Under the pieces are notes generated by a model. The model was not told the DNA's origin and searched no databases. It saw only the letters and a program-made list of their open reading frames with translations. Positions 1 through 64,000 of a stretch of 64,000 nucleotides of DNA are shown piece by piece. Position numbers and translations under genes: made by a program. Source of the DNA: Takakia lepidozioides (taxonomy: Eukaryota > Plantae > Bryophyta); NCBI GenBank assembly GCA_030704615.1, contig CM060733.1:76136001-76200000 (forward strand). The letters run 5' to 3'. How positions within the stretch are numbered: position 1 is the stretch's first letter; each line of letters begins with the position of its first letter.

Positions 1-544
1 CAACCTTGATGATCCGGATGTGTGGACACAAGCATGTGCCCAGCGGGTAGAGTTGTTCAAGAGAGTCATGCCTATGGCTTTTGAGAACCTTTCTATTGCC
101 CAACACCGAGATACAGTGAGATACGCCACTATACGTGGAGGGGGATATCGGCCAGGTGTTTGGCGTTTCCATCCTGAGGACTATGTGTATCTGCAGCAGA
201 CAACGCCTACGACCTTGGATGTCACAGCAGGTCGTGTGATTCTAAGGGTCCGGGAGGTGTTGCTTTCAGGAGTGTTGATTCTGGAGGGTCGAGATGGCAT
301 GGTATGGAAGGACCATGTGCGCAATTGTGCGCCATGCCACCTTCCACATGTGGATGGGAGGATAGATCCCAACCTTGCAGTGGTACCTGCAGGGTTGCGT
401 TGTATGTTATGTGGGCATGCTGGTGGTGCCGCGACCATGTTGATGTGTGACAAATGCTCAAGGGGGTGGCACATGGGATGCTTGACACCGCCACTTGAGG
501 AGGTTCCTAGTGGAGAATGGTTGTGTCCACGATGCCTTGGATAG
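1..544 (+). mobile_element. 3' end of Ty3/Gypsy pol: integrase C-terminal region fused to a PHD zinc finger (5' part outside window)
   Basis: ORF 20..544 is open from the window start and ends in a C4HC3 PHD finger (CMLC...LMCDKCSRGWHMGCLTPPLEEVPSGEWLCPRC). Downstream lie a purine tract AGGGGGGCGA (~797-806) and a TG-starting LTR-like sequence at 808. Confidence 0.8.
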
Positions 545-2359: not shown

Positions 2360-4175
2360 ATAAGCGACCACCAACTTGGCGGTCGCTCCATTTTCCGGGA
2401 AAAAAAAACAAATAAGCGACCGCCAGAACTAGCGGTCGCTCCAATTTTCGTAAAAAAAAGAACGACCGCCAAAACTGACGGTCGCTCCATTTTTCGAAAA
2501 TAAAATAAATAAACGACCGCCAACATATGCGGTCGCCACATTTACAGAGATATTAAGAACAATTAAAATAAAAACGACCGTCAGTAATGGCGGTCGCTTC
2601 ATTTTCAATTAAAATAAAAGCGACCGCCAGTCATGGCGGTCGCTCCATTTCCAACATAATTTTAATAACAGCGACCGCCGGTAGTGGCGGTCGCTGGATT
2701 TACAACAAAAAAACAGTTGCGGCGACCGCCCGTAATGACGGTCGCTCGATTTTCCTCCAAAAAATAGAGAAGCGACCGCCTGTAATGGCGGTCGCTTCAT
2801 TTTCAAAACAATTAAAATAAAATCGACCGCCACAAATGCGGTCGCTCCATTTCCAACCAAATTTAAATAAAAGCGACCGCCACTAATGGCGGTCGCTGCA
2901 ATTACAAAAAACAACAATAGCGGCGACCGCCCCTAATGGCGGTCACTCGAATTTCCTCCAAACAACAAAAAAGCGACCGCCAGTAACGGCGGTCGCCTCA
3001 TTTCTAAAATAATTAAAATAAAAGCGACCGCTATTAATGGCGGTCGCTTCATTTCCAAAATAATTAAAATAAAAACGACCGCCATGTATCCCCCCCCCTG
3101 CCATTCCTCGCTCCACGCACAGGACAGACCTCGTAAAAGCGACCGGCACCTTCGATGTCGCCCCATTTCCAAAAATAAAAAATAAAAGCGACCGCCAGTA
3201 ATGGCGGTCGCTGCATTTTAAGAAATAACCATTACAGTGACCGCCAGAAATGGCGGTCGCTGCATTTTGTAAAAACAAAAATTGCCAGTAATGGAAGTGA
3301 GGGGAGAATGACTGGGAGCTTATATGCCCCCCCTCCCGCCTCATTCTTCGCTCCATGCGCAGGGCAAACCTCGTAGAAGAGACCGCCACTTTTGCGGTCG
3401 CTCCATTTAAAAATAAAAATAAAAGGACTGCAAGTAATGGCGGTCGCTGCATTTTAAAAAATAAGCATTACAGCGACCGCCATAAATGGCGGTCGCTGCA
3501 TTTTGTAAAAATAAAAACTGCCAGTAATGGAGTGTGAGGGGAGAATGACTGGGAGCTTATATCCCCCCCCCCTCATTCCTCGCTCCACGCGTAGGGCAGA
3601 CCTCGTAGAAGCGACCGCCACCTTGACGGTCGCTCCATTTAAAAACAAGAAAAATGGACCACCACAAATGGCGGTCGCTCCATTTCGCGAAAAAAAAGAA
3701 AAAAAAACGACCGCCAGTACTGGCTGTCGCTGCATTTTAAAAAAGAACAATTACAGCGACCTCCAGTAATGGCGATCACTGCATTTACAAAAACAAAAAA
3801 AAACTTCAAGCGACCGCCAGTAATGGAAGTGAGGGGAGAATGAGTCCGAGCTTATATGCCCCCCTCCCCCCCGCCTCACTCCTCGCTCCATGCGCAGGGC
3901 ACCCTCGTAGAAGCGACCGCCACCTTGGTGGTCGCTCCATTTAAGAATCCCAAAAAAGCGATCGCAAAATATGGCGATCGATCCATTTTCCAAAATTAAA
4001 AAAAAAACAACGGACCGCCACTATTGGCGGTTACTGGATTTTCAGAAAAAATAGAAATTAAAGCGACCGCCAGTAATTTTACGAAGAAACAAAAGACGGT
4101 CGCTATTACATTGCGTTCACTGTATTTACAAAGAATAAAAAACAAATGCGACCGCCAGTGATGTCGGTCGCTGCA
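2360..4175. repeat. Array of short palindromes GCGACCGCC-N(~5)-GGCGGTCGC with A/T-rich spacers (hAT-associated subterminal-type repeats)
   Basis: About 30 hairpin units are directly visible. A higher-order block (CCTCGCTCCA.GCGCAGGGCA.ACCTCGTAGAAG) recurs at ~3100, ~3345, ~3578 and ~3881. Confidence 0.9.
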
Positions 4176-4971
4176 TTAAAATTAAAATAAATGCAGAGTT
4201 GGAAGCATGGCACAATTGTTCTCCATTCCACAAGCAAATCACCGAACACAAACATGAACAAGTGACGGTGCCTTTGGCTGACATTTTGGCTGGTATACAC
4301 ATGGGCAACATCTTGTATTTTCCAACACATACACAACAGCAATACAAATACTCATAGTGACGATGATCACACTGATATTACTTCACTACAGAAATGTAAA
4401 CATGTCAATTAAAATGTGCTAATGCATGCCTACAGCTGTTTTGCTTCAATTCTTTCTACTGCTTCGACGGTGGGACGAAGAAGATCCTAATCCTAATACT
4501 CCGATGGGTTGAAAATCCGAGTCATCCTCGACTTCACCACCATTGCCATGATCAGTGCTGCAATCGTCATCCCTATCCGACCTCATATGTCCGGGCTTTT
4601 GAATCTGCAAGCGATCTCGAACCACATTTAGTACTCTTGAGGTCGACTCCCACTCCGGTCTTGAATACCATCCACGATATCTGGCCTGTTTGTGAGCCGA
4701 TCGCCTACAAAAGGTTGGACTGTTCTCTGTCGTTTATGGACTTGGGACGCAATCGAAGGTGGTCTCGAAGGAGGTACCGGAGGGGGGTCTGCCCGAGATG
4801 GACCGGCATTAGACGGTCCGGCATGAGAGGAACCACGGGTCTGCTGCGCAACACGTCGGTTAAGGTGGAATTGTAGTGGCAGGTTGTCCTCATCCGAGGC
4901 TTCAACTTCCACATGGTCCAATGCAGCAGAATGATGCGTGCGTGTGGAAAACAGATCAACTCTGTTGCTCC

Positions 4972-7430
4972 TTAATGTCCGTTGTGTTGATGGGGAGCTG
5001 ATCGGTTTTGGCATTGTGGTGGAGCTGATTGTATCGGTGAGGCATGATCTCGTCTCGTCGACTGTACAATGGGTTCGACACCATCGTTTGTATAAACAGG
5101 GTTGCGTACGTCGCTCGGTCCTGGAAGTTCATCACCCCTAAGCTCCATTGGGGCACTACCGGTGGCTTCAGCGTGTAGTGGGGGGCGAGGGTCGATCCCA
5201 ACTTCATTTTGAGGACCATGTTCTGGGGATGACACAATTGCAGCTTCACATTCATCTGCGATACGCACTTCTTCAAGAAGGTCATCAAAGGTCGGCTGGA
5301 TATAAACATCATCCTCTGTGAATGTAAACGGTTCATACGTATTTTTGGGAGCATCATCGGATCCATCTTCACTATCGGAGGCAGATGATTTCCTCTGAGA
5401 TGATTCTCTCTGAGGCTCAGTATCGTCACTCATCAAATCTACCTCAGAAGCAGAGTCTTCGGAATGTAAATTCCTCTTATACCATGCTGCAGCATCATCT
5501 GCTGCCTCCTCACGTAGCAGTCGGCAATTGGTATACACATACACCAATTTGTCAGCACTCGCGAGATTCAACCTGTTGTGAATCTTGTTGTGAACAAATG
5601 AGTAACTGCTCCAATTGCGTTCGCAAGATGAGGCAGAACACACTTGAGCAAGAATACGCTTCGCAATGGGAGCCAATGTTTTTGCTCCAGCTCCAATCAG
5701 ATCCCACTATTCATGTGGCAACATATTGAGCTCTTTTGGATCCGGCATATCCTTAAAAAGGGTCGCGACGATCTGAGAAACATTGGTACTCGGATATAGC
5801 TCTCTCTGCCATGTTCGGCGGAGCCAGTCGCATGAGCACTCGCACGAGGCCGGCCTTGGCATCAGCGTCATCTCGGAGCATGGTATTGTTGAGCAAGAAT
5901 GGATTGAGCAAAGCCCCCGCATAATGCAAGTCCGTTCGAACCATCGAACGACGGTCGTAAAATGCATCATTAGCACTATCTGCAAGTTCAAGTTCCAAGG
6001 AGAAGGGAGGATGCCTCAAGGATTGGATGTGTTTATCAAGATTTTGCATTAGTAACCATGCCTTGCCCATTACTGGTTGTTTTCCATCAAACTCCTGCAA
6101 GACGATTAACACCGGCTCTACTATACAAACAAAGTTTTCACATTTCTTCCAGAAAACATCGCTGCGAATGCTATTTCGAACTTTTCGACTTTTGCCCAAT
6201 GACTTGGCTTTTCAGGAGTCTCGCAATGTCCGTGTGTACGCATCCTATTGAGGATCGATGATGGTGTGCTCCAGACTGCTCTTCACCGTCACCAACCGAT
6301 CCACCATCAAGAAATTAGTGGCAAAACGAGTCTCGCCTGGATTGCGGAGGCTGTATTTGAGTTCGTGCTTTCTACATATTGCCAAAGGGATGTGGTATGT
6401 GCGGATGAACGACACAACAGTCTTCGCTCGCTTGACAAGTTGTTTCACCCACTCTTCTTTTCCCCAATCTTCCAAAAGGAGATCAATGATATGAGCAACA
6501 CAACCTTGATAGTACATATGGGGATATCATGCCAACAACATGTCTGTAGTGTTTCTCATGTTAGCGGCATTATCTGTGCATATTTACACGATTCTATCAC
6601 TTCCGACCTGTTCGATGAAGTCCGTCAATAATTGACATTTGATAACATCCATCTTTCTTCTCGCCGCTAGTGTCGACCGATCCCAAGAATTGTTCTCCAG
6701 CTAGACATACGAGCATGACATTGAACAACGGTCTGTTTGTAACAGAACTCCAACCATCGGCACATATAGTACTTCCATATTTTCTGATGCACTTGCCCGT
6801 CCTATCGTTGACATTTTGGGTAAGCTCGGTCATGACGTCTTCTAGCAATGCTGTGCGGAGATTGTGATAAGTCGGAGGCATATACGTGGATCTGGACTCC
6901 GAGCTTGCTCTAACGGCAGAAACAAATGCCGGAAGTCTTGCCACATTAAATGGTATGTTGGCCTCGAAGAAAAACTGCGCCCATTTTTTATCCAACTGTC
7001 TTTTCGTAGACAAGTTAAGACCTTTCTGCATGGATTGCTGCCGTAATACTCTACTCCGTTGAAGTGTAGGGGTACAAAGAGGTGTTGAAGCAGGTGTTGC
7101 TCCGGCACAATCCACTTGTCCAAGGACACCCGAAGCCTCACAAGAGTCGCCCTGGGTACTAATTGGGGCATCCTGACGGGAAGATGAAGTGTTCTGCTCA
7201 GAGGTCATGTCCAGATTCAAAGACATTGAAATATTGCCTCCACACTGGGCAAAGTGGTTTTTTACCCACATAGATGCTTTAGGGCATAAACCCACCCCAA
7301 CGCTCTTCATACTTTTATAGTCGAGGTGAGCGAGCAACCAATCCTTACGATAAAAAAACTTTAATCCACATAGGTTGCACTCAACATTACTAGTGGCACT
7401 GACTGTGTTCGGGATTGCCGTATATCAAGG
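4972..7430 (-). pseudogene. hAT transposase pseudogene (BED finger, DUF659 core, hATC dimerization domain)
   Basis: BED-like CNLC...LAHL...GLC near 7290-7385; FFEANIPFNV; ADGWSSVTNRP (first catalytic D); CVAHIIDLLLED; GETRF; WWDLIG..LAPIAKRILAQVCSASSCERNWS (catalytic E). Broken by stops and frameshifts into 5 ORFs. Confidence 0.92.
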
Positions 7431-7884
7431 GCTTCATTCCTCCCTCATCTTCACTCAATATCCACTCCCCTGAGCCCTAGCGATGTAAACAACAAAAAAC
7501 AGTCACCTATAAATGAATGTGTTGTGAATGTAGAGTATAATGCGATAGCCCAACACTTCTACACCTGTCAGCAAACCAAATGGGTCGATGTGGATTGTAG
7601 TGTTGAGCTTATACACAATCTGCTGAAGTGGCTTTGGTGGAAGCCACAACGGCAAAAGATGCGCACCCTCCTCTTGGGCTACACTCTCGTTCAATGGAAG
7701 AGAACATCCAAAGCAACCTCAAGTGTTTGCGCCAAAAGAAGTGATGAGCTTGGTGACCCTCCTCCCTTATACATGATCCAAGAATGATGAAAGTGAAATG
7801 AAAGTGAAATGAATAAATGACGAACCAATAGCGCCCACCCGAAAAAGGCTGTACAACCATATTTGTTATAATTTTGAAATTAAA

Positions 7885-8820
7885 CGACCGCTAATATTAC
7901 GGTTGCTATTTCAATTTTTTATGAAAAACAAGCGACCGCCACTACTGCGGTCGCTTTTATTTCCTTTCATTTTGTGCAATATTGCGATCACTTCTATTTT
8001 GTATACTTTTAAATTTAAACGACCGCTCGTATGGCGGTCGCTATTTTTTTTTATTTCAAAATATAATACGACTACCGGTATGGCGGTCGCTTCAATTGTT
8101 AATATATTTAAAATAAAACGACCGCCAATATGGTGGTCGTTTTTTTTAAAATTTTTTTTTAAAAAAACACGACCGCCAATATGGTGGTCGTTTTTTTTTA
8201 AATTTTTTTTAAAAAAAACACGACCGCCAGTAAGGCGGTCGCTTTTAATCTTTATATTTTCAAGTTTAAGCGACCTCCAGGCTGGCGGTTGCTTAAACTT
8301 AATATATATTTTAAAATTGACGCGACCGCCGGTTTGGTGGTCGCAAATATTGTATTGTTTTAAAATAAGCGACCACCGGTGAGGTGGTCGCTTTTATTTT
8401 CATATGTTGCCTGTTTTATTTATATAATTTTAAATTTACCATCCGCCATATGGCGGTTGTTTGTTTTTCTATATATTTTTTAAATTAAGCGACCGCCCAA
8501 TGTCGGTTGCTGTTTTTCTAATATATTTTTGAAATTATCCGACCGCCATATGACGGTCGCTTGTTCTGTACATATTTACAAAATAGTGCGATCGCCAATA
8601 CGACTGTCAATCTTGTTTTATTTTTAAAATAAATTGAAACGACCGCCAAGATAGCGGTCGATATATATTTTTTAAATTTGAAAATAAAGTGACCGCCAGT
8701 GCGCCCGCCAATCTTGTTTTTTTTTTTAAAAATAAATTGAAGCGACCGCCAATTATGGCGGTCGCTATTTTTTTTTTAATTTCGAAAAACAAAGCGACCG
8801 CCATAAATGGCGGTCGCGTT
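7885..8820. repeat. Second GCGACCGCC/GGCGGTCGC palindrome array (5' subterminal region of the hAT element)
   Basis: About 15-20 units of the same palindrome as 2360-4175, upstream of the transposase. It is followed at 8930-8975 by CTGACGTGAC..CGTCAGCGTCAG, which resembles the reverse complement of the hAT end at 33422-33495. Confidence 0.85.
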
Positions 8821-9249
8821 CATTTTGTTAATTTTCAAAATGTATTTGCCACCGCCACCGTGTCGGCGACATGGCTGCTTAAGTGGCAGTATTTTACCTG
8901 GTAATATTTTTTCCAGAATATTCCCCGAACCTGACGTGACAGAGGTCCCGTCAGCGTCAGACGGACGTGACACTGATAACCGGGGAAAATGATGATGCAA
9001 CAAGGGTTGGCCTAAAATGGATAGCTCTAATGGAAGGAGAGAAAGATGATGAACAAAATGAAGCCACAACAGAATGGGAAGAGAAGCAGGATGGAGAAAA
9101 CTCATTGGATCAGCATGAATGGAACTTGTTGGAACAAGGGAACAGTGACAGCCAAACCAGGGAGCCACAATCAGCAGAGGAAGAGGAGTTGTTGGCCATC
9201 ACGGTTAGTAAAAAAGGATTGTCCTATCACAAAATAAATACAGGTAAGT

Positions 9250-10575
9250 TTGTTGAAGGCAACAGAGACTGAACAAGAGCAGTGGGAGTGTGAAGACATT
9301 AAAGAACGAAGGGAGGAAATGAGCGTAGACATACTGGACGACATACAAGCAATGCATCCAATCACATTCGGACAACCAAATTATTATTTGAAAGATAGGG
9401 AAATCAAACGAATCAGGAAGAGAACACCAGGATATCACTTGATAGCAGAGAAACTCACGTTCAATGGCAAATGGATGCCAGACAAGAGTGTTAGAGAGGA
9501 TATACTTCGAGGGATATATGAAGAAATTGGACATGGGTCAGGAGGGTGCAGATGGATGTCTGCAAACGTTTCTTTTGGCATAACCACACACACACCATCA
9601 GACATGTACCATGCACATGCATCAAATGTCAAGTCGCAAAGAACGCCACACCATTGCGATCAGGAACAAATGAACTACAGAGCATACCGATGAAGGATAT
9701 ATTCTATTGAATCGCGTTGGACACAACAGGGCCACTGCCAGTATCGAGTAAAGGCAACAAATACACGTTGATCGCAGTGGGTCATTTTTCAAAGTGGATA
9801 GAGGTGAGTGCAGTAGCAGATCATACCTCAAAATTGACAGCTCGTTTATTTGAAGAACAGGTCATGTACCGCTACGGGGTACCACATTCGGTGCTCACAG
9901 ACTGTGATGGCTGGGAGTGGACGAAGGATTTCGAAGTCACATGCAAGAAGTTTGGGGTCAAGCATGAGAGATCAGCCCCTTATTGGCCTCGGTGCAACGG
10001 GATGGTGGAGAGATTAATTCGATCGCTCAAGGACAGCATGATCACTGAGTACACATAAAAACAAGGAGTGGGATAGAGCCCTTTACAAGGTGGCGTTTGG
10101 GTACATAGTGGGCATATAGGCTTCAACCAATTTTTCACCATACATGGTGATGACAGAACGGGCAATGAGGTTGGGAGCAGACAACAAATTTTCAGCAGAT
10201 TTCCGAACTAGTGGAGCTCACTGATGATCAGGAAGCGATGCACAAGATGATTGAGGAGAAGATGGCGTTCATACAGGAGCTGGAGGGCACATTGAGGGAG
10301 AATGTTGATGTAGCACAAAGGGCACAACAGAGAGCTTATGCATCAAGAGGGAAAGAACTCACTGAACGGAAGGAGGGCGCATTGTGATGATGCTCAAGCC
10401 TGGCAAGAAGAAGAACATGGAATCATCTTGGGAAGGTCCATACTCCTTTCAAGGGTACGTAGACAAGCACACTGACCGTACCAAGAAGGAAAGAGAACGC
10501 GTATGTATTCTGGAAGACGGAGCAAGAAAGCGGAACAGTGCGAGGCGAGACGTGAAGCACCTGCAGGTTGAGTGA
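9250..10575 (+). pseudogene. Ty3/Gypsy integrase remnant
   Basis: Degenerate HHCC region (EEIGH), rve core DTTGPLPVSSKGNKYTLIAV..FSKW..YGVPHSVLTD..SAPYWPRCNGMVER, and GPY/F motif SWEGPY. Multiple frameshifts. Confidence 0.88.
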
Positions 10576-15085: not shown

Positions 15086-18000
15086 CCCTAATGGACGAGT
15101 CGACCTGATTCGGGTCGATTGGATATTTCGACCGTCGGTGGGCCCCTTGGATGAATCTGGATGAAGATGGGCCCTGAACGAAAGTTGTAGCCCTTGAGAT
15201 TATGTGCCGGACAGAATTTATTGCACCCTAATTCGACAAATCTTGCGTCGTCAGGATTTTTTGAAGTGATGATGAGGACCCAAAATCCAATGGTTTCTGG
15301 CTCTCCACGAGCTTTGACCTAGCCACGTGGCAGGCAAAATGGGTGTCGGTGGCCCGATGCCAGCGATCGGGTGCATGCAGGGTTGGCATGTCCGCCCGTG
15401 CGGACATGGGATGCCACCCTGTGGCCAGTGATGGGTGGCGGTAGCGTGGAAGGGGCTCTCTCTTTGCGCGCACAGAGTCTGGGTTCCTGGAGCTTGCAAA
15501 TTGTGGCCCCTCTCGCATTTCCTTGGCGCTTTTGTGTGCAGGTTTCGCTTGATCTTCTGTGGATCGCCCGCATTCGCTTCGTAGGGGGGTGTATTTCTGG
15601 GCTTTATTTTCAGGTCATGGCGACTTACCTCTCCCAAGCTCGAAGCGGCGGGAGCTGTTCCGTTTCCTGCTGTGTGTTCTAGACATTACAGCTCGGGGTG
15701 TGATTGCATTGACGCAGCTGTTAGGGCTGAGTGTTTGGCGTTTAGATTCTTGTGCCCTGCCGAATTTTCATTATAATGCAAGTTGTCATTTTTTCTTGCA
15801 TGTCGTTTTGTGAAACGATTTTATGCATTTGGGCTCTGTGTTTTGTGTGGTAGGGGATGGTTGCAGGGGAGTGTGGTGTGTTGGGGTTTCATTTTGCAGC
15901 TGGTTTTGGAGAGTTTGCGAAATTCGCCGAGGTACATCCTTCTTTCCTGTGCTTGGAGAAGATGGGCCATCTGCATTGATTCATCGTGAGGGCTTGCATT
16001 CATTTCCTGTGATCTCTGTCGGTCTCAAGGATTCGTATGGCACCAAAGAGGAAGGACACTCCTGTGCCTGAGCCACCGTCGCCCCCACCCAAGCTTGCAG
16101 CTGTCGCGGAGGTTATAAGGGAGTGGGCGCTTGAGGAGCAGCACTGCACTCCCGAGCAGTGCAAGGTAATATTGGGGTGTCTGTCTCCTGCCTTCCTCTG
16201 AAGTTTGCCTCCACCGCCGTTCGCCAATCGTTGGCCTCGCCACCCTCGTCCTCACAATTTTCGCTTTCTGTTTAGATGTCAGGTGGCTCTAGTTCTTGGT
16301 TGGAGAGAGAGAACAGAGGAAGGTGATAATGAAGGGTTCAGTGACGCTATGAATTTTGTTTTGAGAGATGATGTCTGGCCCGATGCCGATAGTCAGGCGT
16401 CTGAAGGCGTTGGCTCGTGCAAAGAGGTCGGTTCCTGCAAGTGTGACAGCACCTCCCAAAGGTGTGGCGAGGAAAAAAAATAAGGGAGTGGTGAATTCGG
16501 GTGTTGTGGGATGTGTTGGCGGGCCTCTGGGTGCTGGGAGCATGCTTGCCGTCGGTCGGGCTGCTTTGGGGGACATGCATCCCAACACTGGTGCACTGGT
16601 TCCTTTTGGTGAGGGGTCTTTTAATCCTGTTTTGGGCCACGATGAGGCCTCCTCCGACATGGACGAGGATTTTGAGGGTGACAATGGGTACATGGGCGAC
16701 TCTGCTGACGAAGCAGACTGGGAAAACGAGGTGGTTGATATGGAGTGTGATGAGGAAATCTCGGCCGATTTTGTGGAGATGTTCAAGGCGAAGACGTGGG
16801 AAACCAACGCAGGCTCTGACTTTGTGAGTGATAGAGCTGCATTTTTTGGCCCTCAACCTGGTCCCTGCCTGCCTGAGATGAAGGGCTCACATCCGATTTG
16901 GTTTTTTGGTTTGTTTTGGAGGCGGCAGGTGCTTGGGCGAATATGTAGGGAGTCCAATCGTTATGCTGCTGAACCTTTCGGTACGGGCACTTGTGGGGGG
17001 CCTCGGTGGAAAGAGCTCACTGTTCCTGAGCTCAGGGTTTGGATTGGAGTCTGTGTCTTCATGGGCATGAAGAAGTTGCCCCGAAAATGATTTTTTTTTT
17101 GCATTACTCGGAGACATTCTTCACTTGTTCTGTCATCCGCAAAGTGATGACTCGAGATAGGTATGAGGCCATACTCCGTTGTTTGCATCTTATTGACAAC
17201 GCCACGTTGGTAGCAGATCGTAAGAGTCGGAATTATGATAAGCTCGGAAAGCTTAGGTGGGTGTGTGAGGAGATTGTGGATAGGTGTAAAAGTCTCTGGA
17301 ATCTGAACAAAATGGTGACTGTCGACGAGGTGATGATCCGTTACAAGGGGAAGTACTCCCCAATTAGGATGTATATGCCTAAGAAACCATGCAAATGGGG
17401 CATCAAGGTGTGGGCCTTGGCTGACTCGGAGACTTCATATGTCTACGACTTTTCAGTGTATGCTGGTAAGAATGCAGGAGGGCCAGATGGCGAGAGGCAG
17501 AAAAGTGGGAAGGGAGAAGGTTATGATGTGGTCACCCGGCTGGCCGACGGGCTGCATGGTTTGGGCCATGTCATTGTGACTGATAATTACTTTACAAGGG
17601 TCCAGCTTCTATATGACATAGCCAAACTTGGCACTTGGGCCACTGACACGGTAAAAGTGAACAGAAAGGGTCTCCCTCCCTCTTTGCTGAAAATGAAAAA
17701 ATCCAAGACTGCCAAGCAAGGGCAGTCATGGTACAGGATGCATGAGTCCAGGGAGGTGGTTGCTGTGTTGTGGTGGGACAAGAAGGGTGTATTCTTACTG
17801 TCATCTGCAGCTAGGCCAGCTTGCAGCCCTTCCTCTCCTGTGACTGTACGCCGTTTTGTGGGAAACCAGAGAGTGCCTGTGCCATCCGTACCTGCACATG
17901 TGCAATACCAAACGTACATGCGAGGGGTGGATGTGCAAGACCAGCTCAGGGGTGCGTACAGCTTGCAGCTACGCACAAAGAAATGGTGGCATCGTCTGTT

Positions 18001-19690
18001 TTTTTTTCTTATGGATACCACGCTAGTGAATGCGTATATCTTGCATTCTGCAATGAGAGAAGGAGGGGGCGTCGGGCCATGACCCATCTACAATTCAATC
18101 TGGCTGTGGCATATGGTTTGACAGGGGGTTGCTGCACTGACAACATTGACACCACGAGGGATTCAGAATGCACGTTTGTGCATCAGTGCCTTCACACCAC
18201 ACGGCGGCGAGTGTGTGTTATGCGCCATGTTCGTACTCACCATTACTGCCCTGGCTGCGATGGCAACCATTTGTGCCTTGGGCGGTGTCGGAATGAGGCA
18301 CACCGGCATGCCTTGAGGTGACTTAATTCTGGCTTGTTGCACTATCTTCTTTCTTTGTGTGTGCATATGTTTGTGTGGGTGGGGGTTCACCAGGGTGTGG
18401 GACTGCATGCAGGTATGCTGGAGGCTGTGGATGGTGTGTGTGCGTGGGACGTGGGGTGTGGGTATCTCTGATCTGTGGTGGGTATGGGTTCTTCTCAGGT
18501 TGGGGGGTTGTGTGTGTCCATGTTGGTTGATGGGCAGTGGGGGTCATGGGGGGCTGGTGGTGACGGTTCAGTGGCAGTGGAGGGGTGTGGGGGTCATGTT
18601 GCTGCTGGTTGATGGGCAGTTTTGGGAGTGGGGGGGTCATGGGGGTCTGCTGCTTGCTCATTGTGGGCTGTTTTGGTGATGGTTCACAGGCTGTGGGGGT
18701 GATGGGGATCTACTGCTGCTGGTTGAGGGGTTGTGGAGGTGATGGGGGTCCTTCAGTGTTGGCGTGTGTGCGTTGTGTTTGGGTGGTTTCACAGTTTTTT
18801 TTTGGGGGGGGGGTGTCTACACACTGGGCAGATCGGGGGGTTCAACTCCCCCCCAGTTCGTGGATCATGTCTTCGGGGTGGTGTGTGGTTTGGGTTCGCT
18901 GCATTCAAAGGAAAAGCAGGAGCTCACGGGGAGCTTGAACACAGATGGGGCCACATTCGTGACGGTTGGTAGTTGTTAGTTTTTCAGTTGCCTGTCAGGT
19001 GGAACGCCGAAACGTCGGGCGTTCCCGGGCCCTTTTTTGGGTGTCGATTACGTAGCCCCCTTTTTGTAGCCGGAATTGTCTACCGGCTCAGGCAATACAT
19101 GGCCTGAGCTGGGATTCAAGTAGAAATACACGTACTTAGAAATCTCTGCCTGCATTTTGGTTAGAATTCAGAAATTCTTTTTGGAGGTAGTAGGAAATCA
19201 TAGGAGGAACAATTCCACTGGTGGAATTCTGGTTCCAATGAAAATTTCGACCCCTATGGCTGAATTACAGGTCAATTGAAGCAAATAGTGCTTTTTGACC
19301 CCCCTGTTTTCCCATACAAAGGAACCCTATGCAGATTTTGGAATTCTGCTTTGCAAATTTGGGGCAAATTGCTTTAGGTGCCTGAGAATTGGAATGTGGA
19401 TGGGGTCTTGCAAGGAATTTTTTTTTTTTCGGTCCAACTGCCTGGTCAAACCAATTTTTCCCTCTAAAATTGGAATACACTACAGATTTAGAGCTTACCA
19501 TTTTGTTATAATCTTCCTAATGACACGGTGAAATGGGCTGAAAGTCTTACAGCAGGTGCATGAGGTAGGTAGCGTCCTTTTCATACGGTTGATCCCTGTG
19601 GATGTTTCTTAGTTGGGAGATATACCCTCATCCGTGAGGGTATGTGCTGTTTTGGAGTGGGCCCACCAAAAACAGCCTTGTCTATTAGGG
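15086..19690 (+). mobile_element. piggyBac-superfamily DNA transposon, ~4.6 kb
   Basis: Left TIR CCCTAATGGACGAG (15086-15099), with TTAA at 15081-15084. Right TIR CTTGTCTATTAGGG (19677-19690) matches at 12/14, both mismatches C>T. The element contains the piggyBac transposase. Confidence 0.8.
16368..18321 (+). pseudogene. piggyBac transposase (DDD) with C-terminal cysteine-rich domain; two homopolymer frameshifts
   Basis: Catalytic motifs VDEVM, TDNYFT and GVDVQDQL; YMPKKPCKWGIKVWALAD; KKWWHRLFFFLMD; CRD VCVM..YCPGCDGNHLCLGRC..AH. Frameshifts at the T-run ~17090-17100 and the G-run ~18064. Confidence 0.92.
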
Positions 19691-21509: not shown

Positions 21510-21870
21510 CCGTAAGCTATCAACCACTTGAGTGGCTGGTGATCCGTGACAAGGGTGAAGAGATTGCCGTATAGATAGCACCTGAAGTGTGCCACGGCCC
21601 ACACTGCAGCAAAACACTCTCCTTTATATGAGCTATACTTAGCCTCTGCAGCGTTGTTTGAGCAGCTACCATAAGCCACTACGAACTCTCTTCCCTCATC
21701 ATCCACATGTGTGAGCACCGCTCCAAGCCCCAGCATGCTCCAATCTGTATGCAGCTGAAAGGGACGCCCCCTGATAGGTCGTCTCAAGATAGGCGCCGAG
21801 GTCAACCTCGCCTTGAGCTCTTGAAAAGCTCGTTCCTGCTCATCTTCCCACTACCACTGGACCAGTGGGT
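21510..21870 (-). pseudogene. Ty3/Gypsy RT-connection/RNase H fragment
   Basis: TSAPILRRP..FQLHTDWS..GLGAVL..VVAYGS.SNNAAEAKYSSY.GECFAAVWAVAHFRCYLYG..FTLVTDHQPLKWL. Confidence 0.9.
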
Positions 21871-28259: not shown

Positions 28260-29618
28260 TCATGCGTGTAAAATGTGACGACAAACAATCTCTCGTAGCT
28301 CAGCACCTACATTCAGGCCCCTGTCGACAACCGGCTCTTCATCATGAGCTAGATGATCTCGCTCCCTGATTGCTTCAAGCGCATCCATGTCGTTGAATAC
28401 ATCATCAAAGTCCACTTCCTTGAAGTCCACAAGTATGTTGTAAATGATGCAACATGCATGGACCACCTGTGGTAGAAATGTAATATCAAGGCCGCTTCTC
28501 CAACCCACTTCCTTGAAGATACGTTTGAGCCGTCCAAATGCAATCTCACTATAAATCCTTGCTTTTGACAACTGATGGTTGAACACGGTCTTGGCTCTAG
28601 AGAGTGCCGGAGCATTGGCAGCTCTTTTGTAGCTAGGTATCAGCCAAGGAAGGCAAGGATATATGGCATCCCCGAGAAGGATAGGTGGGATAGTCTGGCC
28701 ATTGTCCAAAATAACGCTTTCTCCCCGCAATATAGTTCCTTGAGAAGCCGGATAGAAGAGTGTGGAGTTGCGCAACATTCTCGAGTCATTCATACTTCCC
28801 GGCTCCCCAACATACATATCTACAAATTTTGCATCAGGATTGACAACACCATTGAGTAGTATCCAAGTCTATTGCGATAGTCGAGTTTGATATTGTTTGC
28901 AGGGGCTTGAATCCTGATTTGCGTACAATCGATTACACCCACTACATTTGGAATTCCAGATCTACGTTCATTTTCAAGCATGGATGTCTTTAGGGTATCA
29001 CCAGCCTCCCATCGAAGGTGGTGACCTAACACAAACACAATAGCAGGTACAACTTGACGTAAGAGCTCATATAGTATCGCTGCACCAATTCCAAATGCTT
29101 CTGTCATTTCAGCGGTAGTTGCTGCCCATATCAATTTGTACAGTGGTCCCTGAACTCATTTTCATGATCATGAGCCATCGAGCATCATCATACTCCAAGA
29201 GAAATTCCTGAAACCATGCTCGAGACCTATGCTTCACCCACATCCCAGATGAAATACAACCTCTAGGCTTGCAAAACTTGATAATGAAAAGAGTGTCAAG
29301 CGCTGAACGCCATTGCTGGATGCATTGGTCAAGGCTATCATCTTTGTCCACATCCATGCCATGGACCTGGGAAAGTGACGCATCCACATGCAAACTTGGT
29401 GTCTTGGACCCTAACCCAAAGAGCTCTGAAAACTGATCCATTATGTATTGCATGAGGACGAGAATCTCAGCAAATGCTAAGAAGACATCCTTGTCCATCA
29501 TGGGTTCCATCCTGTGAATTAGCCCCCCACTCGTTGCTTGAAAAATAAAATATGACAGCCTTCTCGTTGTTGCTCTCCAAATTCCTGTTTCCCAACACAA
29601 AGCCGGTACCAACCCCAT
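28260..29618 (-). pseudogene. PIF/Harbinger transposase (HARBI1-like DDE_Tnp_4 nuclease)
   Basis: GVIDCTQIRI; PGSMNDSRMLRNS; LLGDAIYPCLPWLIPSY; FNHQLSKARIYSEIAFGRLKRIF; VVHACCIIYN. Split into 3 ORFs. A possible element terminus ...GCGGCGGGGGCC|TAA lies at 31208. Confidence 0.9.
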
Positions 29619-36398: not shown

Positions 36399-36719
36399 AA
36401 CCCCCCCACTAAAGCCTGCTGCTGTCACCCCTAAGGCTCCTGTTGGTCTCAGTCTGTGTAAAAATTAAGGGTACCCCACAGAACCCGTAAAAGCGTTAAA
36501 GTCCCAAGCAGCCCTCTAACAGTCTTAGGAAATGGGCAGTAGTGCTGCTAACTTGTTTTGTCTAAGTCATAAACCAGCGGTTAACACATCCTCACACCCA
36601 AAACCCTAACCACAGACTTAAGGTTGAACGAAGAACACTAGTGTACTTGGTAGATTTGTCAAGAGCAATAGAAGTTAGATCAGAATGCGATGGCCCAACA
36701 CTACGGCATCAATCCAAGT

Positions 36720-38085
36720 CTACATACACACCTCCGAGTTATCGCGATCTCCGTACATGATTGCTAGAAGAGGCTATGTCTGACCTCACCCAAAAGGTGA
36801 ATGAAAAGACAGATGATTCTCCCCGGAAATATGGAAGCACTATATGTGCGGACGGTTGGAGTTCTGTTACTAATTGACCACTGTTCAATGTCATGCTAGC
36901 GGGGGAACAATTTTTGGGATCCGTTGACACAAGCGGGGAGAGAAAAGATGCACGTTATCAAGCAGGGTTGTTGACGAGTTTCATCGATAAAATTGGAGCT
37001 GATAAAATTGTCCAAGTGTGCACGGACAATGCATCTAACATGATTAATATGGCCGATATTTTGATGGTACGATATCCCCATCTATATTACCAAGGGTGTG
37101 CTGCTCATATCTTTGATCTCTTTTTGGAGGATTGGGGAAAAGAATCATGGATGAAACAACTAGTAAAAGGGCAAAGCCGGTTGTGACATTCATTTGTACA
37201 CATCACATCCCTCTGGCATTGTTTAGAAAGCATGAATCCAAATACAGCCTTAGGTGAAACCCGCTTTGCCACAAACTTTTTGATTGTGGATCGACTGGTG
37301 ACTGTCTGGAGCAGGTGATCATTGACCCTCAATGGGATGCGTATGTGGGCACCTTACGCGACTCTCGTAAGTCCAAGTCTTTGAGTAAAAGTCGGAGGGT
37401 CCGCGCAATCATTCGCTCCGACAATTTCTGGGCGAAATGTGCAAATTTTGTGTACATGGTGGAGCCGGTGTTGATTGCTTTGCGGGAGTTTGATGGAAAA
37501 TAACCAATAATGGGTAAAACATGGTTGTTATTGGAAAACCTTGAGAAGCACGTGCAATCCTTGAGGCGTCCTCCATTTTCTATGGACGATGATTTGGCAG
37601 CAAGGACCGAGGATGCATTTTACGACCGCAAACGGATGGTTCGCATGGACTTGCATTATGCGGGGGTCTTGCTGAATCCATTCTTGCTGGACAATACGGA
37701 TTTGAGAGACGATGTGGATGCCAAAGCCAGGCTTATACGGGTCATCATGCAACTTGCGCCTTTGAACATGGCAGAGCGAACTTTGTCCAAGTATCAGTGC
37801 TTCTCGGATCGCCAGAATCCTTTCCATGACATGTCGGATCCAAAAGCAATGAACATGTTGCCACATGAATGGTGGGATCTGATTGGAGCTGGAGCAAGAA
37901 CGTTAGCTCCCATTGCAAAGCGTATTCTTGCTCAAGTGTGTTCTGCCTCATCCTGTGAGCGGAACTGGAGCAGTTACTCGTTTGTTCACAACAAGATTCG
38001 CAATAGGTTGAATCCTGCCAGGGCTGACAAATTGGTTTATGTCTACACGAATTGTAGGCTACTGCGAGAGAGGACAGCAAGTGAT
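36720..38085 (+). pseudogene. Second hAT transposase pseudogene, close paralogue of 4972-7430
   Basis: ADGWSSVTN; GSVDTSGERKD; CTDNASNM; CAAHIFDLFLEDWGKE; CSASSCERNWSSYSFVHNKIRNRL. Truncated at ~38085 by the Gypsy element. Confidence 0.9.
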
Positions 38086-40379
38086 GCACGGATTTGCTCA
38101 AAAAGGTCATCCCCAAAATGAGATCCACTCCATCGATCTCGCAGATGGTGAAGTTCTCACGTCCCTCCCAACTCCCCAGTTGAAGGGGAACATCAATTGC
38201 CACCTTGTCGCCAACTGTGGTTCTCCTTTGGCAGAACGCACCTCAATAGAGGTCCCCACGTCACTTGTCGGGAGTCCCAGCTTTTGTGCCGTTGCCGGTG
38301 TCATGAAGGAGTGCGACGCTCCTGTGTCCACCAACAATGACACATTAGTTCCGGATATTATCCCATCCACGAACAATAACTGACTCCCTTTTCGTAAGGC
38401 GCCAGTTTCCTGATACAACTCATAAGAAAATTTGCCTACCTTGCAAGTCCTGGCGACCACCGCTTCCACCAAGCGACTGATGGTATCTTCCGACAGCTCC
38501 GTGGTCGCCCGAGTCATGTTCAATTGCCGGGGCTTCATGCACTTCTTGGCCATGTGCCCGGGCTCCCCGCAATTGAAACACACTCCATCAAAGGTCATCC
38601 TCTGTCCGCCATAAGCTGCTCCACCCGCTTTTCTTCGAAGCACAGGGTGCCGCCTTGACGTGTGAAGGCCCTCCCTTCGATTTCCACGTGCCAATGTCGC
38701 CGCGTGGCCTATCGCACTTCTTTTCCGGTCGGAAGGAGTCACTTTCCCGCCGGGTCTTCTGTGGTTCAGCTCCGTACAGCCTTGTCTCTCACCCCTAGGG
38801 ACATCCGAGAAACATTCAGCCCTCTCAATTGCCTCGTTCAAAGTCTTGGGTGGCTTCTCCTCCAACTTCCGCCTGGCCCATGGGGCCAGTCCCGCCACAA
38901 AGTTGAAGACCATTTCTGGTTCTGCCATGTCCGCGACTTCGAGCAACAGCACATTGAAAGCCTGGACATACCCCCGAATGTCATCTGTTTGCTTCAAATT
39001 CCTCATCTTGTCCCGGGCAAGCCATGACGCGTTGAGGGGCACAAACTGTCTCTTCATCAATTCCTTGAACCCACTCCAGTTCAAGGTTTCCGGACTTGGA
39101 CCTCGGTCGTGAAGGCGTTTCTGCCACCATTGTTGAGCATAGCCTCTCAAATAGGTGGGAGCCACTTCCACACGATCCTCGTCACTCAACTTGGCCGTCC
39201 GGAAGTACTGCTCCAGCTCCAAGAGCCAAGTGTTGAGTGCCTTCCGATTTCGGACGCCCTCGAAGGTGCCGGGTTCATTAGGCTTCACCTTAAACTTTGC
39301 CTTAGTGGAAGTGGCATTAGCCGCCTTCAACACGTCTTTCAACGTCCCGCCAAACTGCGCCAACAACCCTTCCCAAAAGGCTGCCGGCATGGGAGGCATC
39401 TCTTGGTTTGTCGGAGCTCTCAAGGATTCCTCGGGCTCCGACTCCTCGGATTCCTCCCGCTCTTGGGTGGCCTCGTTTTCGGAAACATGCATCGCTTCCT
39501 CAAACGGCCGCCTCGGTGACACGCCGCCCCCATCGGGCTCACCGGGGTCATCATCTTTTGGGCCGTTCCGCTTTCGCTTCGGCTTGCCCGACCCCATGAT
39601 GAGGCCAATCCCAAGGACGATCGCGTACTGAACTCTAAGCTCTGATACCAAGTGTCGCGCACCTCACTTCGGTAAGCTCCCCTTCAAGTCATAGTTACTC
39701 GCTTTGATGCGCGCGCCTGACTCCCAACCTGGCCGCCCGGGCCAACTTGGAGCTTCGGCTGCTCACCGGGACATAACGGTCTCCCCTTCGCTTCCCACTA
39801 AACCCTCCACCTAATTGGGACTAGGAGAATTCCCTTTGGTAGATGGCAGTCCGGAACAGCTCCCCACTCTTTGGTCGCTTTCCGGCTCGCTCGCTTACTC
39901 ACTAGTTTTTGGTCACCAACGGGCTTGCACCGTTCTCGGGGTTACTACTCCCTATATATACTTTTGTAGCTGTCCACAGGGGTTCCACAACCAGCCATGC
40001 CATTTTATGGCGAACCACCACGAAAACCCTCGACTCCCGGTGATGAGTCGCGGTGAGTCTTGGCCCGCTCACCACGGCCCCTATGGACCGTGATGAGTCC
40101 CAAGACTCCCCACGACTCCCACCACGAGGTCTCCGCCCCCATGGTGAGTCCTATGCCACCCCCACTAAGTCCTGCTAAGCTACCACCACCCCTTGTGGAG
40201 CCACCCCCACCGCAACCCGGTGTGCGGGGCTCCACCTAGTGAGCGCCTCCGCTTCCCTGAGTGCCTTGGGCACTCAAGGGTGCTTCAGCCCCCCATACCT
40301 ATCGCTGCCGCTGCCCCCACCACAGGGGCAGCCCCTCATGTGTCCCGACCCCCTGCCCTCAAGGCAAAGGGCCGCAACA
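38086..40379 (-). mobile_element. Ty3/Gypsy 5' part: LTR (39653-40379), tRNA-Met PBS, gag and aspartic protease
   Basis: LTR bounded by TGTCGCG...CGCAACA. PBS TGGTATCAGAGC (minus, 39639-39650). ORF 38107..39651 has retrotransposon gag (FEGVRN..WLLELEQYF..LRGYAQQWW), CCHC knuckle CFNCGEPGHMAKKC and protease LVDTGASHSF, with DLILGM after a frameshift. Confidence 0.9.
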
Positions 40380-44066: not shown

Positions 44067-47000
44067 TTACCTGCTGGTAGATTTGGGCTTGGCCAAGTCA
44101 GCAAGCTCCTCAATCAGTTTTCTCTCGTCATTGCTGAGACGCTTCGGAATCTCAACCTGCACCCGCACCAGTTGATCACCTCGCAAATTTGGCTTCCCCA
44201 ACAAGGGGACCCCTCGCTTGCCCATCACCAATGTTGTTCCTGGCTGGGTCCCAGCTGGAATTTTCAAGTCCACTGTACCGTCAACAGTTGGTACTTTCAC
44301 GGCTGTCCCAAGAATGGCATCAATGTAAGAGACTTTGGAAGAGATCAGAATGTTGTTCCCATCACGTTTCAGCTCGGGGTGTGTCCGGACATTTATGAAG
44401 ACATACAAGTCACCAGGAGGACCCCCACGCCTGCCAGCATTCCCCTCCGAGCGCACACGAAGCCGGCTTCCGGAATCCACACCAGCAGGAACTTTAAGGC
44501 TGATCCGCTTGGTTTTCCTTACCCTTCCATCCCCACCGCAGGTTGTGCATGGGGTTGAAATCTCCCCTGTGCCCCCACATTGAGGGCAGGTCGATACCTG
44601 TCGAAAGTCACCCAAGGGAGTCTGGGCGGTTGTCACCACCTGGCCTTGACCTCCACAGGTGCTGCAACTGGTAGGTGAAGTACCAGGCCTAGCTCCTGAT
44701 CCATCACAAGTGCTACAAGTCTCCAGACGGGTCACTTCAATATCCTTGTCTGTCCCAAAGACAGCATCCCGAAAATCTAGTAAAAGGTCGTAGCGCTCAT
44801 CGTCACCTTGCATTGGCCGGCTCCGAGCGGCCCGGGACCCCCCCATACCTCCCATACCCATGCTCCCAAAGAAGGTCTCGAACAAGTCAAATGGGTTATT
44901 GAAGTCCTGCCAAAATTGCCAACATTTATGTTAGTGTTATTTGTACATCAACAATGGCAACTTCCCCACCACCACCACCCCTCATCAGTTTTTCACTAGG
45001 CTTGGCAAGGCATATCCCTGTTGCAGTGCGTGCCTCATGTTGATGAGACATGTTGTGGTGGGATATAACTTGAATGCACTGATAATGCAATGTCATTCTC
45101 TCCATCTACATCCTCACAAGCACATTGGGTAAGTTGATAGACTAGCACATAATTCATCACTGTAGGCTGTGATTGTCAATGTCCATACTAATCCTAATAC
45201 CAGGCATGCAAAAACCAAACAGTGAACAAAGGGTAGGTCAGGCATACCCCAGGTCCTCCAGCTCCTGCACCCTTGAGACCAGCCTCCCCATATTTATCAT
45301 AAATAGAACGTTTATCGTCATCAGACAACACCTGCACAAAGTACACCACTGCTTATGAAGCCTTTCACCTTGGCATCAAAATTTAAATGTGTAACACTCG
45401 AAGTAACCAACTCCAAATACGATAGTGTATGTAGGTTCAGTTACAGAATTCATTCAAAGACACAGGCATGAGCCTGTGAAGGCACCAGAGGAGCATTTGG
45501 ACACACAGAAGTAATGAGTAGCAGAAAATCACCTCATATGCATTGCTTATGTCCTTGAACTTCTGTTCTGCTCCAGCATCTCTGCAACACAAGCCAGACC
45601 AGCCCTGATCAGCGTTGCTTGCACATTAGAGCGCATCCAAGTCCAATTCTCTTGGAAATTATCACACTTTCAATCCGGTTAAGTGGAAATTGGCAACCAA
45701 AGCTACTATGATTGGATTTCAGCACAATCCTAACAATGGTGTACAGCACTAGTAAACATTTTAATAACTGTGAAATAAAGTGAAAGTCACCGTACTTGTT
45801 GACATCAGGATGGTACTGTCGTGCCAGTCTCCGATATGCTGCACGCAGAATGAGGCACTTGATCATCAGCAGCTACCATGTAAGATACATTCGTTAACAT
45901 ATGAAATAAACAATACATCCTGATATGAAAAGGGAGTAATGTAGCCATTTTTCTGAGTTCCACTGGGTTGCCTGTGAAAGGGTCTGAAAAGGTAGGTGTG
46001 GACACAAGTCTACTAAACATATAAGGCAGATAGAGGTGACCATGCTTAACAAAGCCTAAAAGCATATTAACCATACACGAACTGAGGAATTATCTGGTCC
46101 TGATAAAGTGACTTGTACCCCCAAATAAATTCCAATGCATCTGCAGAACTCATAATGCATACAGCCTTACGGAAAGTGTGCCTTTCAGTGCAGCACTAGA
46201 AACTTACCACTCTTTATCTCTGATTTGTCTGAAGTTTTGCCAACTCCAAGAACCGAGTAAAAGTCCTGCACAGAAACCCTTCTGTCACACCCTCTCTCAT
46301 CTAAGACATTTACTTGACAACCCTTTCTTAGATTGAGCAGACCTAGATGTCTCATGCTCCACACGAATGCTCAATATGGATCGATAAGATAGCAAACGCC
46401 ACTCAGAGATTGGTACCCCTTGCACTCTTCTCATGCCTTGCAACGTGCCCACTTATGCTCCTCCTCCCCCACTCTTTGGACATAAGAAATAGAAACTTGA
46501 ATATTTTTTTCTACCCTTCCTGGATTGAGACTTGTCAACGTATGATGCCAAAAACTTCACTTGCTGAATTCTCCTTGGTAAATAAGTGAGTTACACAAGG
46601 AGTCCCAGAGGCGAGCCCGTGTGCTGCCATTATATCACAAAACAGTCAAACTGTACTCATCATCCTAGGCTCAGCACTAGACCGTCATCCCTGCAGATTT
46701 ATTCTCTTCAGGGAGCGACCCTCTGCAGGACCATCAAGAACATTGTCCCTCCACGTGCATTCATCAAATTTCAAAATCTCGAGGCTGAGCCTAAAGCCCC
46801 AGCCCTGTTGGGGCCTAATAGCTGGACAGCTCACACACAGCGGATTGATGCTTGTGTGAAGAGCTTTCTAGAGAAGATCTGGAAAGCCTAAACTAATTGC
46901 TTACATCAAGGTTAGTCCTACTACCGTGATGAGCCCCTCACAAAGTTAGTGTCTTTTCCCTCTAGTTCTGTGCTGACTGGGTGCAGGGTCTATGGTCACA

Positions 47001-63800: not shown

Positions 63801-64000
63801 TTTGTTGCCGGTGTCTGCAGTTCGTGGATACCAACAAGCCTTGCCAGCAGACATTCGTTGTTGGGGGCGCCGGATTTGGAGCAGGTTGGCTCCATTGATC
63901 TGGTAGTGGCAGGTTGGCCCCGCCAAGGGCATTCATCAACCGGGCATGGCAATGGATTGCGAGACTCGAGGACGGGTCTGTTTTGGGAGATGGTGCGGAT
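60845..64000 (+). mobile_element. Ty3/Gypsy-like gag-protease-DNA methyltransferase polyprotein pseudogene (continues past window end)
   Basis: gag (LDDFIQEFDSWC; FQRKPSESLREAYTRM), two CCHC knuckles (CWTCGGPHVKRDC, CGHCGKYGHGDAQC), aspartic protease VLLDSGAQP..YDVLVGG, then a C5-MTase. One frameshift at ~61285; in-frame stops at 62002, 62083 and 63778. Confidence 0.88.
63640..64000 (+). pseudogene. DNMT3-like cytosine-5 DNA methyltransferase domain inside the retrotransposon pol
   Basis: Motif I LLDLFGGISTGL; motif II YLYVERD; motif III ADI; motif IV IDLVVAGWPRQGHS (catalytic Cys codon replaced by CGC at 63921-63923); then GLRDSRTGLFWEMVR. Stop at 63778 and a 1-nt frameshift at ~63856. Confidence 0.85.

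Follow-up and report, generated by a model that had tools for sequence, protein, structure and literature searches.

The window considered here, 64,000 nucleotides of the moss Takakia lepidozioides, opens with the end of a retroelement frame that closes in a PHD finger, and near its other edge, at 60.9 kb, a second retroelement piece runs into a DNMT3-like domain. The question raised by this locus is whether one retroelement encodes both a histone reader and a DNA methyltransferase, and how the two domains might be related in function. At the level of the family the first part can be answered in the affirmative. For the stretch at the beginning of the window, the reading preferred here, with a probability of roughly 0.6, is that it constitutes the 3' end of a Ty3/Gypsy element of the Gypsy-DNMT3 kind, the PHD finger of which likely tethers it to histone H3, and the methyltransferase of which likely marks the element's own cDNA.

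The frame at positions 2–544 of the forward strand, open at the window edge, encodes 180 amino acids and closes with the stop codon at 542–544; because most of the aligned contigs differ at 542, the stop of the family may lie slightly downstream. The final domain of this frame is a C4HC3 PHD finger (401–535, + strand, aa 134–178), which matches PF00628 in Pfam over the complete profile (positions 1–47, E 1.4e-11, 44.7 bits versus a cut-off of 24) and has all eight ligands in place. The 128 residues upstream of the finger can be assigned to the C-terminal tail of an integrase (2–385, + strand, cut by the window edge), since homologs have an rve domain directly before it; here a long helix (5–45) is predicted to be followed by a small beta domain (strands 61–111). 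The initial annotation, which described a pol C-terminus ending in a canonical PHD finger, was thus correct on this point. A C-x-P-C-H-L-P motif located before the finger (aa 105–113, DNA 314–340), with residues P111, C112, H113 and L114 conserved to at least 90% in 60 sequences, may bind an additional metal ion or contribute to packing. Among the solved structures (87 PDB sequences at E ≤ 0.001), the best relatives of the finger are CHD4, KDM5B PHD1, KMT2D, KDM5A PHD1 and BHC80, with the DPF, BAZ2A and UHRF1 fingers as further ones. In the AlphaFold model of the window protein (alignment of 60 sequences, mean pLDDT 89.5) the PHD superimposes on those of DPF3, BHC80, BAZ2A and UHRF1 to ≈ 0.8–1.3 Å over 45–49 columns.

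By gapless alignment with KDM5B PHD1, in which the roles of the residues holding A1 and R2 of histone H3 have been described (PMC4225485), residues L147, D150, P169, G171 and W173 of the window finger correspond to L325, D328, P347, G349 and W351, i.e. to the A1 pocket and the R2-binding Asp. Across 154 fingers of the family the equivalents of L325, D328, P347 and W351 are retained in 150, 141, 153 and 149 cases, and that of G349 is Gly in 86%; residues in contact with A1 and R2 are thereby kept in 92–99% of the fingers despite an overall identity of ≈ 45%. In 17 of 32 pairs with relatives, dN of the PHD amounts to 0.22–0.31 versus a dS of 1.3–3.6 (dN/dS ≈ 0.07–0.2), the other 15 pairs being saturated. 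The finger is maintained, and from these residues it is predicted to bind the N-terminus of H3. The column two residues before the His, placed after ING-type fingers, is presumably that of the methyl-K4 cage Trp; none of the 154 fingers has Trp at this position, and the window finger has Gly. The window finger has neither an acidic cluster ahead of Cys1 nor an acidic wall, the position of the wall being taken partly from BAZ2A. In the group to which the window belongs, the equivalents of D308 and E321 are found in 4 and 3 of 30 fingers and the acidic wall in 7 of 30, whereas in the long-tail group, where 88 of 124 fingers have some acid before Cys1, the K4-contact acids are commoner. A cage Trp is invariant in PHDs of the ING/BPTF class that read methylated K4, and acidic residues are regarded in reviews as the mark of K4me0 readers (PMC3241642, PMC5415848). 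The window finger resembles the readers of unmodified H3, such as KDM5A/B PHD1, BHC80, BAZ2A, UHRF1 and DPF3 PHD2 (PMC4225485, PMC3241642, PMC5415848), in lacking the cage Trp and in its Leu-Leu-Cys-Asp strand and Pro-x-Gly-x-Trp pocket, and differs from them in that both acidic features are missing. Of the earlier proposal of a finger reading unmethylated H3K4, the A1/R2 contacts and the missing methyl-K4 Trp are in agreement, the acidic K4 contacts are not; as the latter are missing although the former are kept, specificity for H3K4me0 is not established. It is conceivable that the PHD is no histone reader at all, and that it gives the integrase structural support or a surface for partners, contacting DNA, a host factor or another subunit of a multimer. 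Neither the window finger nor most of its group has the acidic contacts to K4, and some PHDs do not bind H3 or recognize different ligands (PMC9640981, PMC5636791). Retention of the A1/R2 surface in 92–99% of 154 fingers at ≈ 45% identity speaks against such a role, which appears unlikely, and binding to the H3 N-terminus is retained as the preferred function.

The association of the PHD with a methyltransferase was followed in metagenome loci, the best 80 of at least 549, mostly from few samples. Of these, 36 include the N-terminus of RT, 27 of them with at least 700 bp upstream, and in 26 of the 27 a DNMT domain is located directly before RT; 25 also have the PHD. With near-identical loci merged, DNMT is present in 22 of 23. 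The sole locus without it, L014, is cut off in the linker just before RT. The order of domains in the relatives is gag-PR-DNMT-RT-RH-INT-PHD, with the aspartic protease (PR) ahead of DNMT and RNase H (RH) and integrase (INT) after RT. In the protein set, comprising the best 150 of 7,192 representatives, with DNMT found by purpose-built profiles, 31 proteins combine RT or RH with INT and PHD; DNMT resides in 26 of them, while 5 RT/RH-containing representatives have none in the protein. Pfam itself recognizes PF00145 together with PF00628 in single proteins such as P0024, P0034, P0039, P0104 and P0173, and among 44 longer homologs three of these (P0024, P0034, P0039) unite PF00145, RT, RH, rve and PHD in one chain. 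That one retroelement encodes a PHD and a DNA methyltransferase, as had been surmised, therefore holds for the family (26/27 loci, 26/31 proteins), and the opposite outcome, PHD elements devoid of the methyltransferase, was not seen, the exceptional L014 ending ahead of RT.

In an unrooted RT-RH tree of 35 proteins two layouts are separated with an SH-aLRT support of 99. In the first, represented by 23 proteins with Scenedesmus as the only named host, DNMT lies between RH and INT and long tails are found; in the second, with 12 proteins including one from Coleochaete, DNMT precedes RT, or the frame starts at RT, and the PHD is terminal. The window element belongs to the DNMT-before-RT layout. 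Relatives occur in Marchantia, Calypogeia, Sphagnum, Coleochaete and Scenedesmus; proteins named after Klebsormidium are not among the homolog matches, the nearest named charophyte being Coleochaete scutata (P0010).

Several further features of the relatives should be recorded. Six internally deleted loci (L002, L004, L006, L033, L034, L046) join gag, some of them also PR-DNMT, to an integrase tail with the PHD, without RT and RH, and are possibly non-autonomous derivatives. In tails of the algal type the PHD is followed by a Tudor-like stretch (P0035, P0077, P0095, P0121, P0130, P0142 and other long-tail proteins; PF21743 below cut-off), and by a further domain with DP[FW]xGxG and TSPW/SPP motifs, for instance at aa 525–760 of P0078. 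The latter falls into Atlas clusters with phage and bacterial N6_Mtase/MTS proteins (0.94–0.95), an assignment based on motifs, sub-threshold Pfam matches and the Atlas; its first motif is kept in strict form in 6 of 28 RT-RH-DNMT-INT-PHD proteins. If correct, this would give an element with two methyltransferases, of a kind other than the EpiLTRs discussed below. G-patch matches were located between DNMT and integrase in the algal-type polyproteins P0029, P0130, P0127 and P0077, and CCCH zinc fingers in the Gag region (aa 340–410) of P0201, a full-length DNMT-before-RT polyprotein.

The second copy in the window can be followed from 60862 on the forward strand, with a gag region (60862–62004, from open reading frames and Pfam), interrupted by a frame change at ≈ 61275 and a stop at 62002–62004. 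It continues with an aspartic protease carrying the sequence LLDSGA (62830–63270, + strand; the corresponding part of L022 gives Asp_protease_2 with E 2e-4, slightly short of the curated cut-off), and ends with the N-terminal part of the DNMT3-like domain (63640–64000, + strand), cut by the window edge. This DNMT piece (PF00145, E 6.5e-5) shows a stop at 63778–63780 and a frame change at ≈ 63855, and the position of the catalytic Cys (63921–63923) reads Arg. Many Marchantia models share ≈ 50% identity with this gag-PR-DNMT copy, and one from Sphagnum shares 39%. Its 5' end appears lost or diverged near 60862, since contigs diverge upstream of this position, and a search of the 64-kb window located no copy of the repeats A and B (see below) upstream of it. 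A further trace of this clade, a lone piece of RNase H, lies at 21518–21856 on the reverse strand (77% identity to P0007/P0008, 79% to Marchantia P0053).

Are the two pieces one family, as had been supposed? One Marchantia gene model, P0009, matches both (52% and 71%). In 20 non-redundant loci drawn from the best 80 of 549, the identities to the two pieces rise and fall together (Spearman rho 0.68, p 0.001). Trees of both pieces recover the same subfamilies, the window standing beside an 11-member group with support 94 in one tree, and the tail tree leaving its placement without resolution. It can be rationalized from these comparisons that the pieces are very probably separate copies of the same clade; so much of the former claim stands, supported by two trees, rho and P0009, while the pieces neither overlap nor share a repeat. 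The missing common repeat would also suit a pair of sister families, in which case the PHD-bearing family of the host may have lost its DNMT. Along these lines, contigs matching up to 811–812 and then diverging reveal sister families with the same purine-tract region and other repeats. In one sequencing run 9,222 contigs aligned on the PHD piece, 29,499 on the gag-PR-DNMT piece and 1 at 59.8–60.5 kb, and the summed depth on the gag-PR-DNMT piece was ≈ 2 times higher, summed contig depths not being copy numbers. Matching tree positions and identity ranks, the double match of P0009, and the fact that DNMT-free elements among the 23 non-redundant loci (best 80 of 549) amount to one truncated copy make this alternative improbable, and the two pieces are likely members of one family.

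The methyltransferase of the family finds its best solved relatives in DNMT3A/3C/3B (E 6e-8), with motifs I–X in non-permuted order. Across 42 DNMT domains, the catalytic Cys is present in 38, the Glu in 39 and each of two Arg in 39; motif IV reads EC instead of PC in 24 of the 42. In P0037, P0092 and P0110 catalytic motifs are lost and the frame is kept. CpG observed/expected amounts to 0.46–0.59, no lower than the 0.53 of a host exon, and hence gives no sign of depletion by self-methylation. The Klebsormidium enzyme produced no methylation in yeast, a result its authors call inconclusive (PMC5890265).

How the methyltransferase is expressed relative to the PHD would depend on a stop codon between DNMT and RT; this junction lies outside the window. 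In L022 a frame of 1369 aa (gag-PR-DNMT) and one of 1047 aa (RT-PHD) are separated by a single break, an in-frame TAG, and the first Met past it falls within RT. DNMT is in frame with RT, but 23 of 31 loci (best 80 of 549) have a stop between the two at the corresponding position; the frame is open in the subfamily of L072, L074, L078 and L079 and in the proteins P0236 and P0201, and the stop site is missing in L032 and in L030/L037/L038, which represent one insertion. In the nearest subfamily the stop is found at one codon in 12 of 13 loci versus 30 of 310 at other Gln/Trp columns, and decay was rejected as its source on these numbers. What follows the stop is always CAR-YY or its C-to-T decay, with the exact CAR-YYA, the readthrough signal of TMV (PMC2754532), in L022 and a second subfamily. 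Loci of the nearest subfamily depart from this consensus, reading CAA-CCY and continuing directly with an ATG, so that reinitiation or splicing is possible there. With this conserved stop lying between DNMT and RT-INT-PHD in the majority of land-plant loci, the two are not one plain ORF, and the expectation of a single ORF between identical LTRs finds support neither here (23/31 loci) nor at the repeats, which are split into A and B-A-B. Judged from the codon context, Gag-PR-DNMT is probably the main product, with RT-INT-PHD arising by leaky readthrough, and DNMT would then greatly outnumber integrase in the particles.

Downstream of the frame, and all on the forward strand, the 3' untranslated DNA holds a conserved motif without coding content (633–688; 75–82% identity in related loci), followed by a conserved 34-bp cis element (773–806; 85–97%) including the purine tract AGGGGGG at 797–803. 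The latter matches DNMT-bearing loci too (L004, L013, L018, L020, L021, L025, L035, within the first 40 alignment rows). Repeat B follows at 808–892 (start ± 2 nt), with TG at 808 and the end CACGACA. An internal junction CA-GC-TG (889–898), palindromic as GACA-GC-TGTC, leads into repeat A (895–1259), which by comparison with full-length loci is the 5'-end repeat of these relatives, and a second copy of B (1261–1345, by repeat match), with CA at 1344–1345, presumably forms the 3' end of the element, whose 5' end falls outside the window. The segment 808–894 recurs at 1259–1347 with 96.6% identity, and summed contig depth drops past ≈ 1300. In full-length relatives among the best 80 of 549 loci the coding part is preceded by A and followed by B-A-B, and B is missing from the 5' end in five of five; the same five, representing four independent sites, show a 4-bp target duplication at their TG...CA termini. 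The B-A-B block was detected in 25 of the 64 loci with at least 1 kb downstream (20 non-redundant) and not in the remaining 39 (best 80 of 549). In all 15 loci where the pattern was read, and in the window, inner CA and TG are spaced by 2 bp; the sequence of the window junction matches L007, L018 and L035. The polypurine tract and LTR start formerly placed here are therefore right as to the purine run at 797–803 and the TG at 808, and wrong as to an ordinary LTR start, 808–894 being repeat B of a B-A-B block. With only A at the 5' end, the segment 808–894, once suggested as a query, would miss that end of the element, and the split repeats probably conceal the family from LTR finders.

Such an arrangement bears on the replication cycle. 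No TGG primer-site start was located after repeat A in the four independent loci inspected, and the purine tract precedes B, not A; on these two grounds a circular intermediate, which the integrase would open at the CA-NN-TG junction and which would dispense with a tRNA primer site after A, is tentatively proposed. Cleavage of 2-LTR junctions by foamy-virus integrase provides a precedent (PMC1180852). Alternatively, A-coding-B-A-B could be copied via an ordinary linear cDNA with processed ends, the 2-bp junction acting as a template from which the ends are restored. Ordinary DDE integration would leave just such TG...CA ends and 4-bp duplications, and this route is a serious candidate, at somewhat less than even odds, even though it leaves unexplained the missing TGG start in four independent loci and the purine tract before B rather than A, and even though the 2-bp spacer may reflect the need of a staggered cut into two processed ends.

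From these elements the following sequence of events may be envisaged for the Gypsy-DNMT3-kind element preferred here. Gag-PR-DNMT would be made as the main product, and readthrough of the leaky stop would supply RT-INT-PHD at a lower amount than DNMT. With a slight preference over other schemes, the protease is proposed to free DNMT, which would methylate the cDNA inside the particle independently of the PHD. The PHD, on balance, would remain on the integrase and bind the free N-terminus of H3 (A1, R2), docking on the tail, steering the landing and so biasing insertion; exclusion of this binding by K4 methylation is plausible, if a weaker proposition. In the circular variant the integrase would open the CA-NN-TG junction, and insertion with a 4-bp duplication would follow. 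Most likely, DNMT and PHD act at different steps. The initial annotation drew attention to animal DNMT3, which is coupled to H3K4me0 through its ADD domain; in a coupled element of this type, the PHD would read H3K4me0 and direct or activate the accompanying DNMT where the element inserts into host chromatin. Both domains are co-inherited across green algae and land plants, and in the 23 chlorophyte-type proteins DNMT comes after RNase H and before integrase and shares its frame with INT-PHD, so that a DNMT-INT-PHD product is possible in that group. In the window's group DNMT is upstream of RT, usually behind the stop, and the K4-contact acids are weak; moreover, within the clade DNMT has moved while the PHD stayed on the integrase. 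With ≈ 1000 aa and a stop codon between the domains, and a protease of its own in the polyprotein, coupling is doubtful for the window's group and altogether quite improbable. A wider picture can be drawn, in which a Viridiplantae-wide Ty3/Gypsy clade, highly amplified here, would have left the standard LTR cycle: no tRNA primer site, a circle opened by a DDE integrase at CA-NN-TG, a DNMT3 packed in Gag-like amounts by means of the leaky stop, an H3-reading PHD and, in algal members, Tudor-like and phage-like amino-methyltransferase domains in addition. That all of its parts hold together is rather doubtful.

Other parts of the window bear the traces of further mobile elements. Remnants of a hAT-like transposase (DUF659, hAT dimerisation; 4972–7424, reverse strand) lie between arrays of ≈ 50-bp units at 2400–4200 and 7860–8840; these units have a palindromic GCGACCGCC core, and a related copy in inverted orientation is present at 36700–38090. 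An integrase remnant at 9322–10161 (+ strand), ≈ 30% identical to the PHD-DNMT family, and a Ty3 gag-protease frame at 38107–39663 (− strand) are unrelated to the element (Pfam, homolog comparison). Pfam further identifies transposase frames of the types DDE_Tnp_1_7 (16365–18082, + strand) and DDE_Tnp_4 (28260–28868, − strand), which we take to be piggyBac-like and Harbinger-like, respectively. A long exon of a chloroplast-type DnaJ gene (44067–44930, − strand; Pfam) finds its nearest matches in liverworts, lycophytes and Sphagnum (86–88%), which by itself points to a non-seed land plant, most likely a bryophyte.

With regard to known systems, three classes come near the element and were rejected. 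Chromoviruses carry a chromatin reader at the C-terminus of the integrase (Gao et al. 2008, cited in PMC6673714). In the present element the PHD replaces the chromodomain, and split repeats and DNMT are added; since Pfam returned only the PHD and no Chromo match for the window protein and 18 + 18 relatives, membership was dismissed. DIRS elements with split direct repeats, a type for which PAT/Ngaro is presumably the name, employ a tyrosine recombinase, whereas rve integrase and 4-bp target duplications are found here, with no recombinase match among the Pol-type relatives; this class was discarded on these grounds. It shares with the present element the A-coding-B-A-B repeats and, in SymbioDIRS-Dnmt3, the DNMT3 (PMC5890265). 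The EpiLTRs of Cymbomonas and Euglena, finally, combine a histone reader and a cytosine methyltransferase in one LTR element, as here, but with a chromodomain as reader, a DNMT sister to DNMT4 and a Dam-like enzyme; the paper sets them apart from Gypsy-DNMT3, and its text names no PHD domain (10.64898/2026.05.21.726589). Membership was rejected because of the PHD and the DNMT3-like domain, the window frame ending directly after the PHD.

PHD fingers in Gypsy elements have been published before. In REM1 of Chlamydomonas the PHD resides in a separate antisense ORF. This element is cited as another PHD-bearing Gypsy in the description of Gypsy-7a_cRei from the same alga, which enters intergenic DNA at 2.6 times the frequency expected by chance, and the PHD of which is proposed to steer insertion, as here; unlike here, no methyltransferase is listed in that text and the LTRs are nearly ordinary (10.1101/2022.06.16.496473). 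Retrotransposon PHDs have been called widespread (PMC6673714), and fusions of TE and PHD are published (10.1101/2021.11.30.470311).

The closest counterpart is KnitGypsy-Dnmt3 from Klebsormidium nitens, described by de Mendoza et al. in 2018 (PMC5890265), a Ty3/Gypsy element with a non-permuted DNMT3-like domain, as here, and with DIRS-like repeats (legend to Fig. 4c; A-coding-B-A-B according to the legend to Fig. 1e) in the same layout. The relatives of the window element possess the features of Gypsy-DNMT3: gag-PR-RT-RH-INT with rve, the non-permuted DNMT3-like domain and A-coding-B-A-B. The text of that paper and three supplements do not contain the term PHD, although Fig. 4c may draw one; it does not seem to describe a DNMT-RT stop or a target duplication, both of which are seen here, and it assigns the acquisition to the lineage of K. 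nitens, as against the liverworts, Sphagnum, Coleochaete and Scenedesmus found here. The function of retrotransposon DNMTs is treated there as an open question. According to a 2019 review, 'land plants, such as tracheophytes' have no methylase-encoding transposons (PMC6338049); in a 2026 preprint, Gypsy-DNMT3 is already assigned to 'streptophytes'. Copies annotated as hypothetical proteins or methyltransferases can inflate counts of DNMT and PHD genes. Marchantia polymorpha has many copies (12 of 13 matches), chromatin maps and methylation mutants, so that PHD targeting, the stop and the circle model are testable in this liverwort. Its met1 mutants are described in 10.1101/363937. In the text of the literature searched, figures apart, no description of DNMT3 and PHD in one Gypsy element was found. 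Gypsy-DNMT3, PHD-bearing Gypsy and reader-plus-writer LTR elements are already published separately; added here are the DNMT-RT stop, the target duplications and the 2-bp junction, and the range of DNMT-carrying retrotransposons widens from a single alga to include liverworts, peat mosses and chlorophytes.
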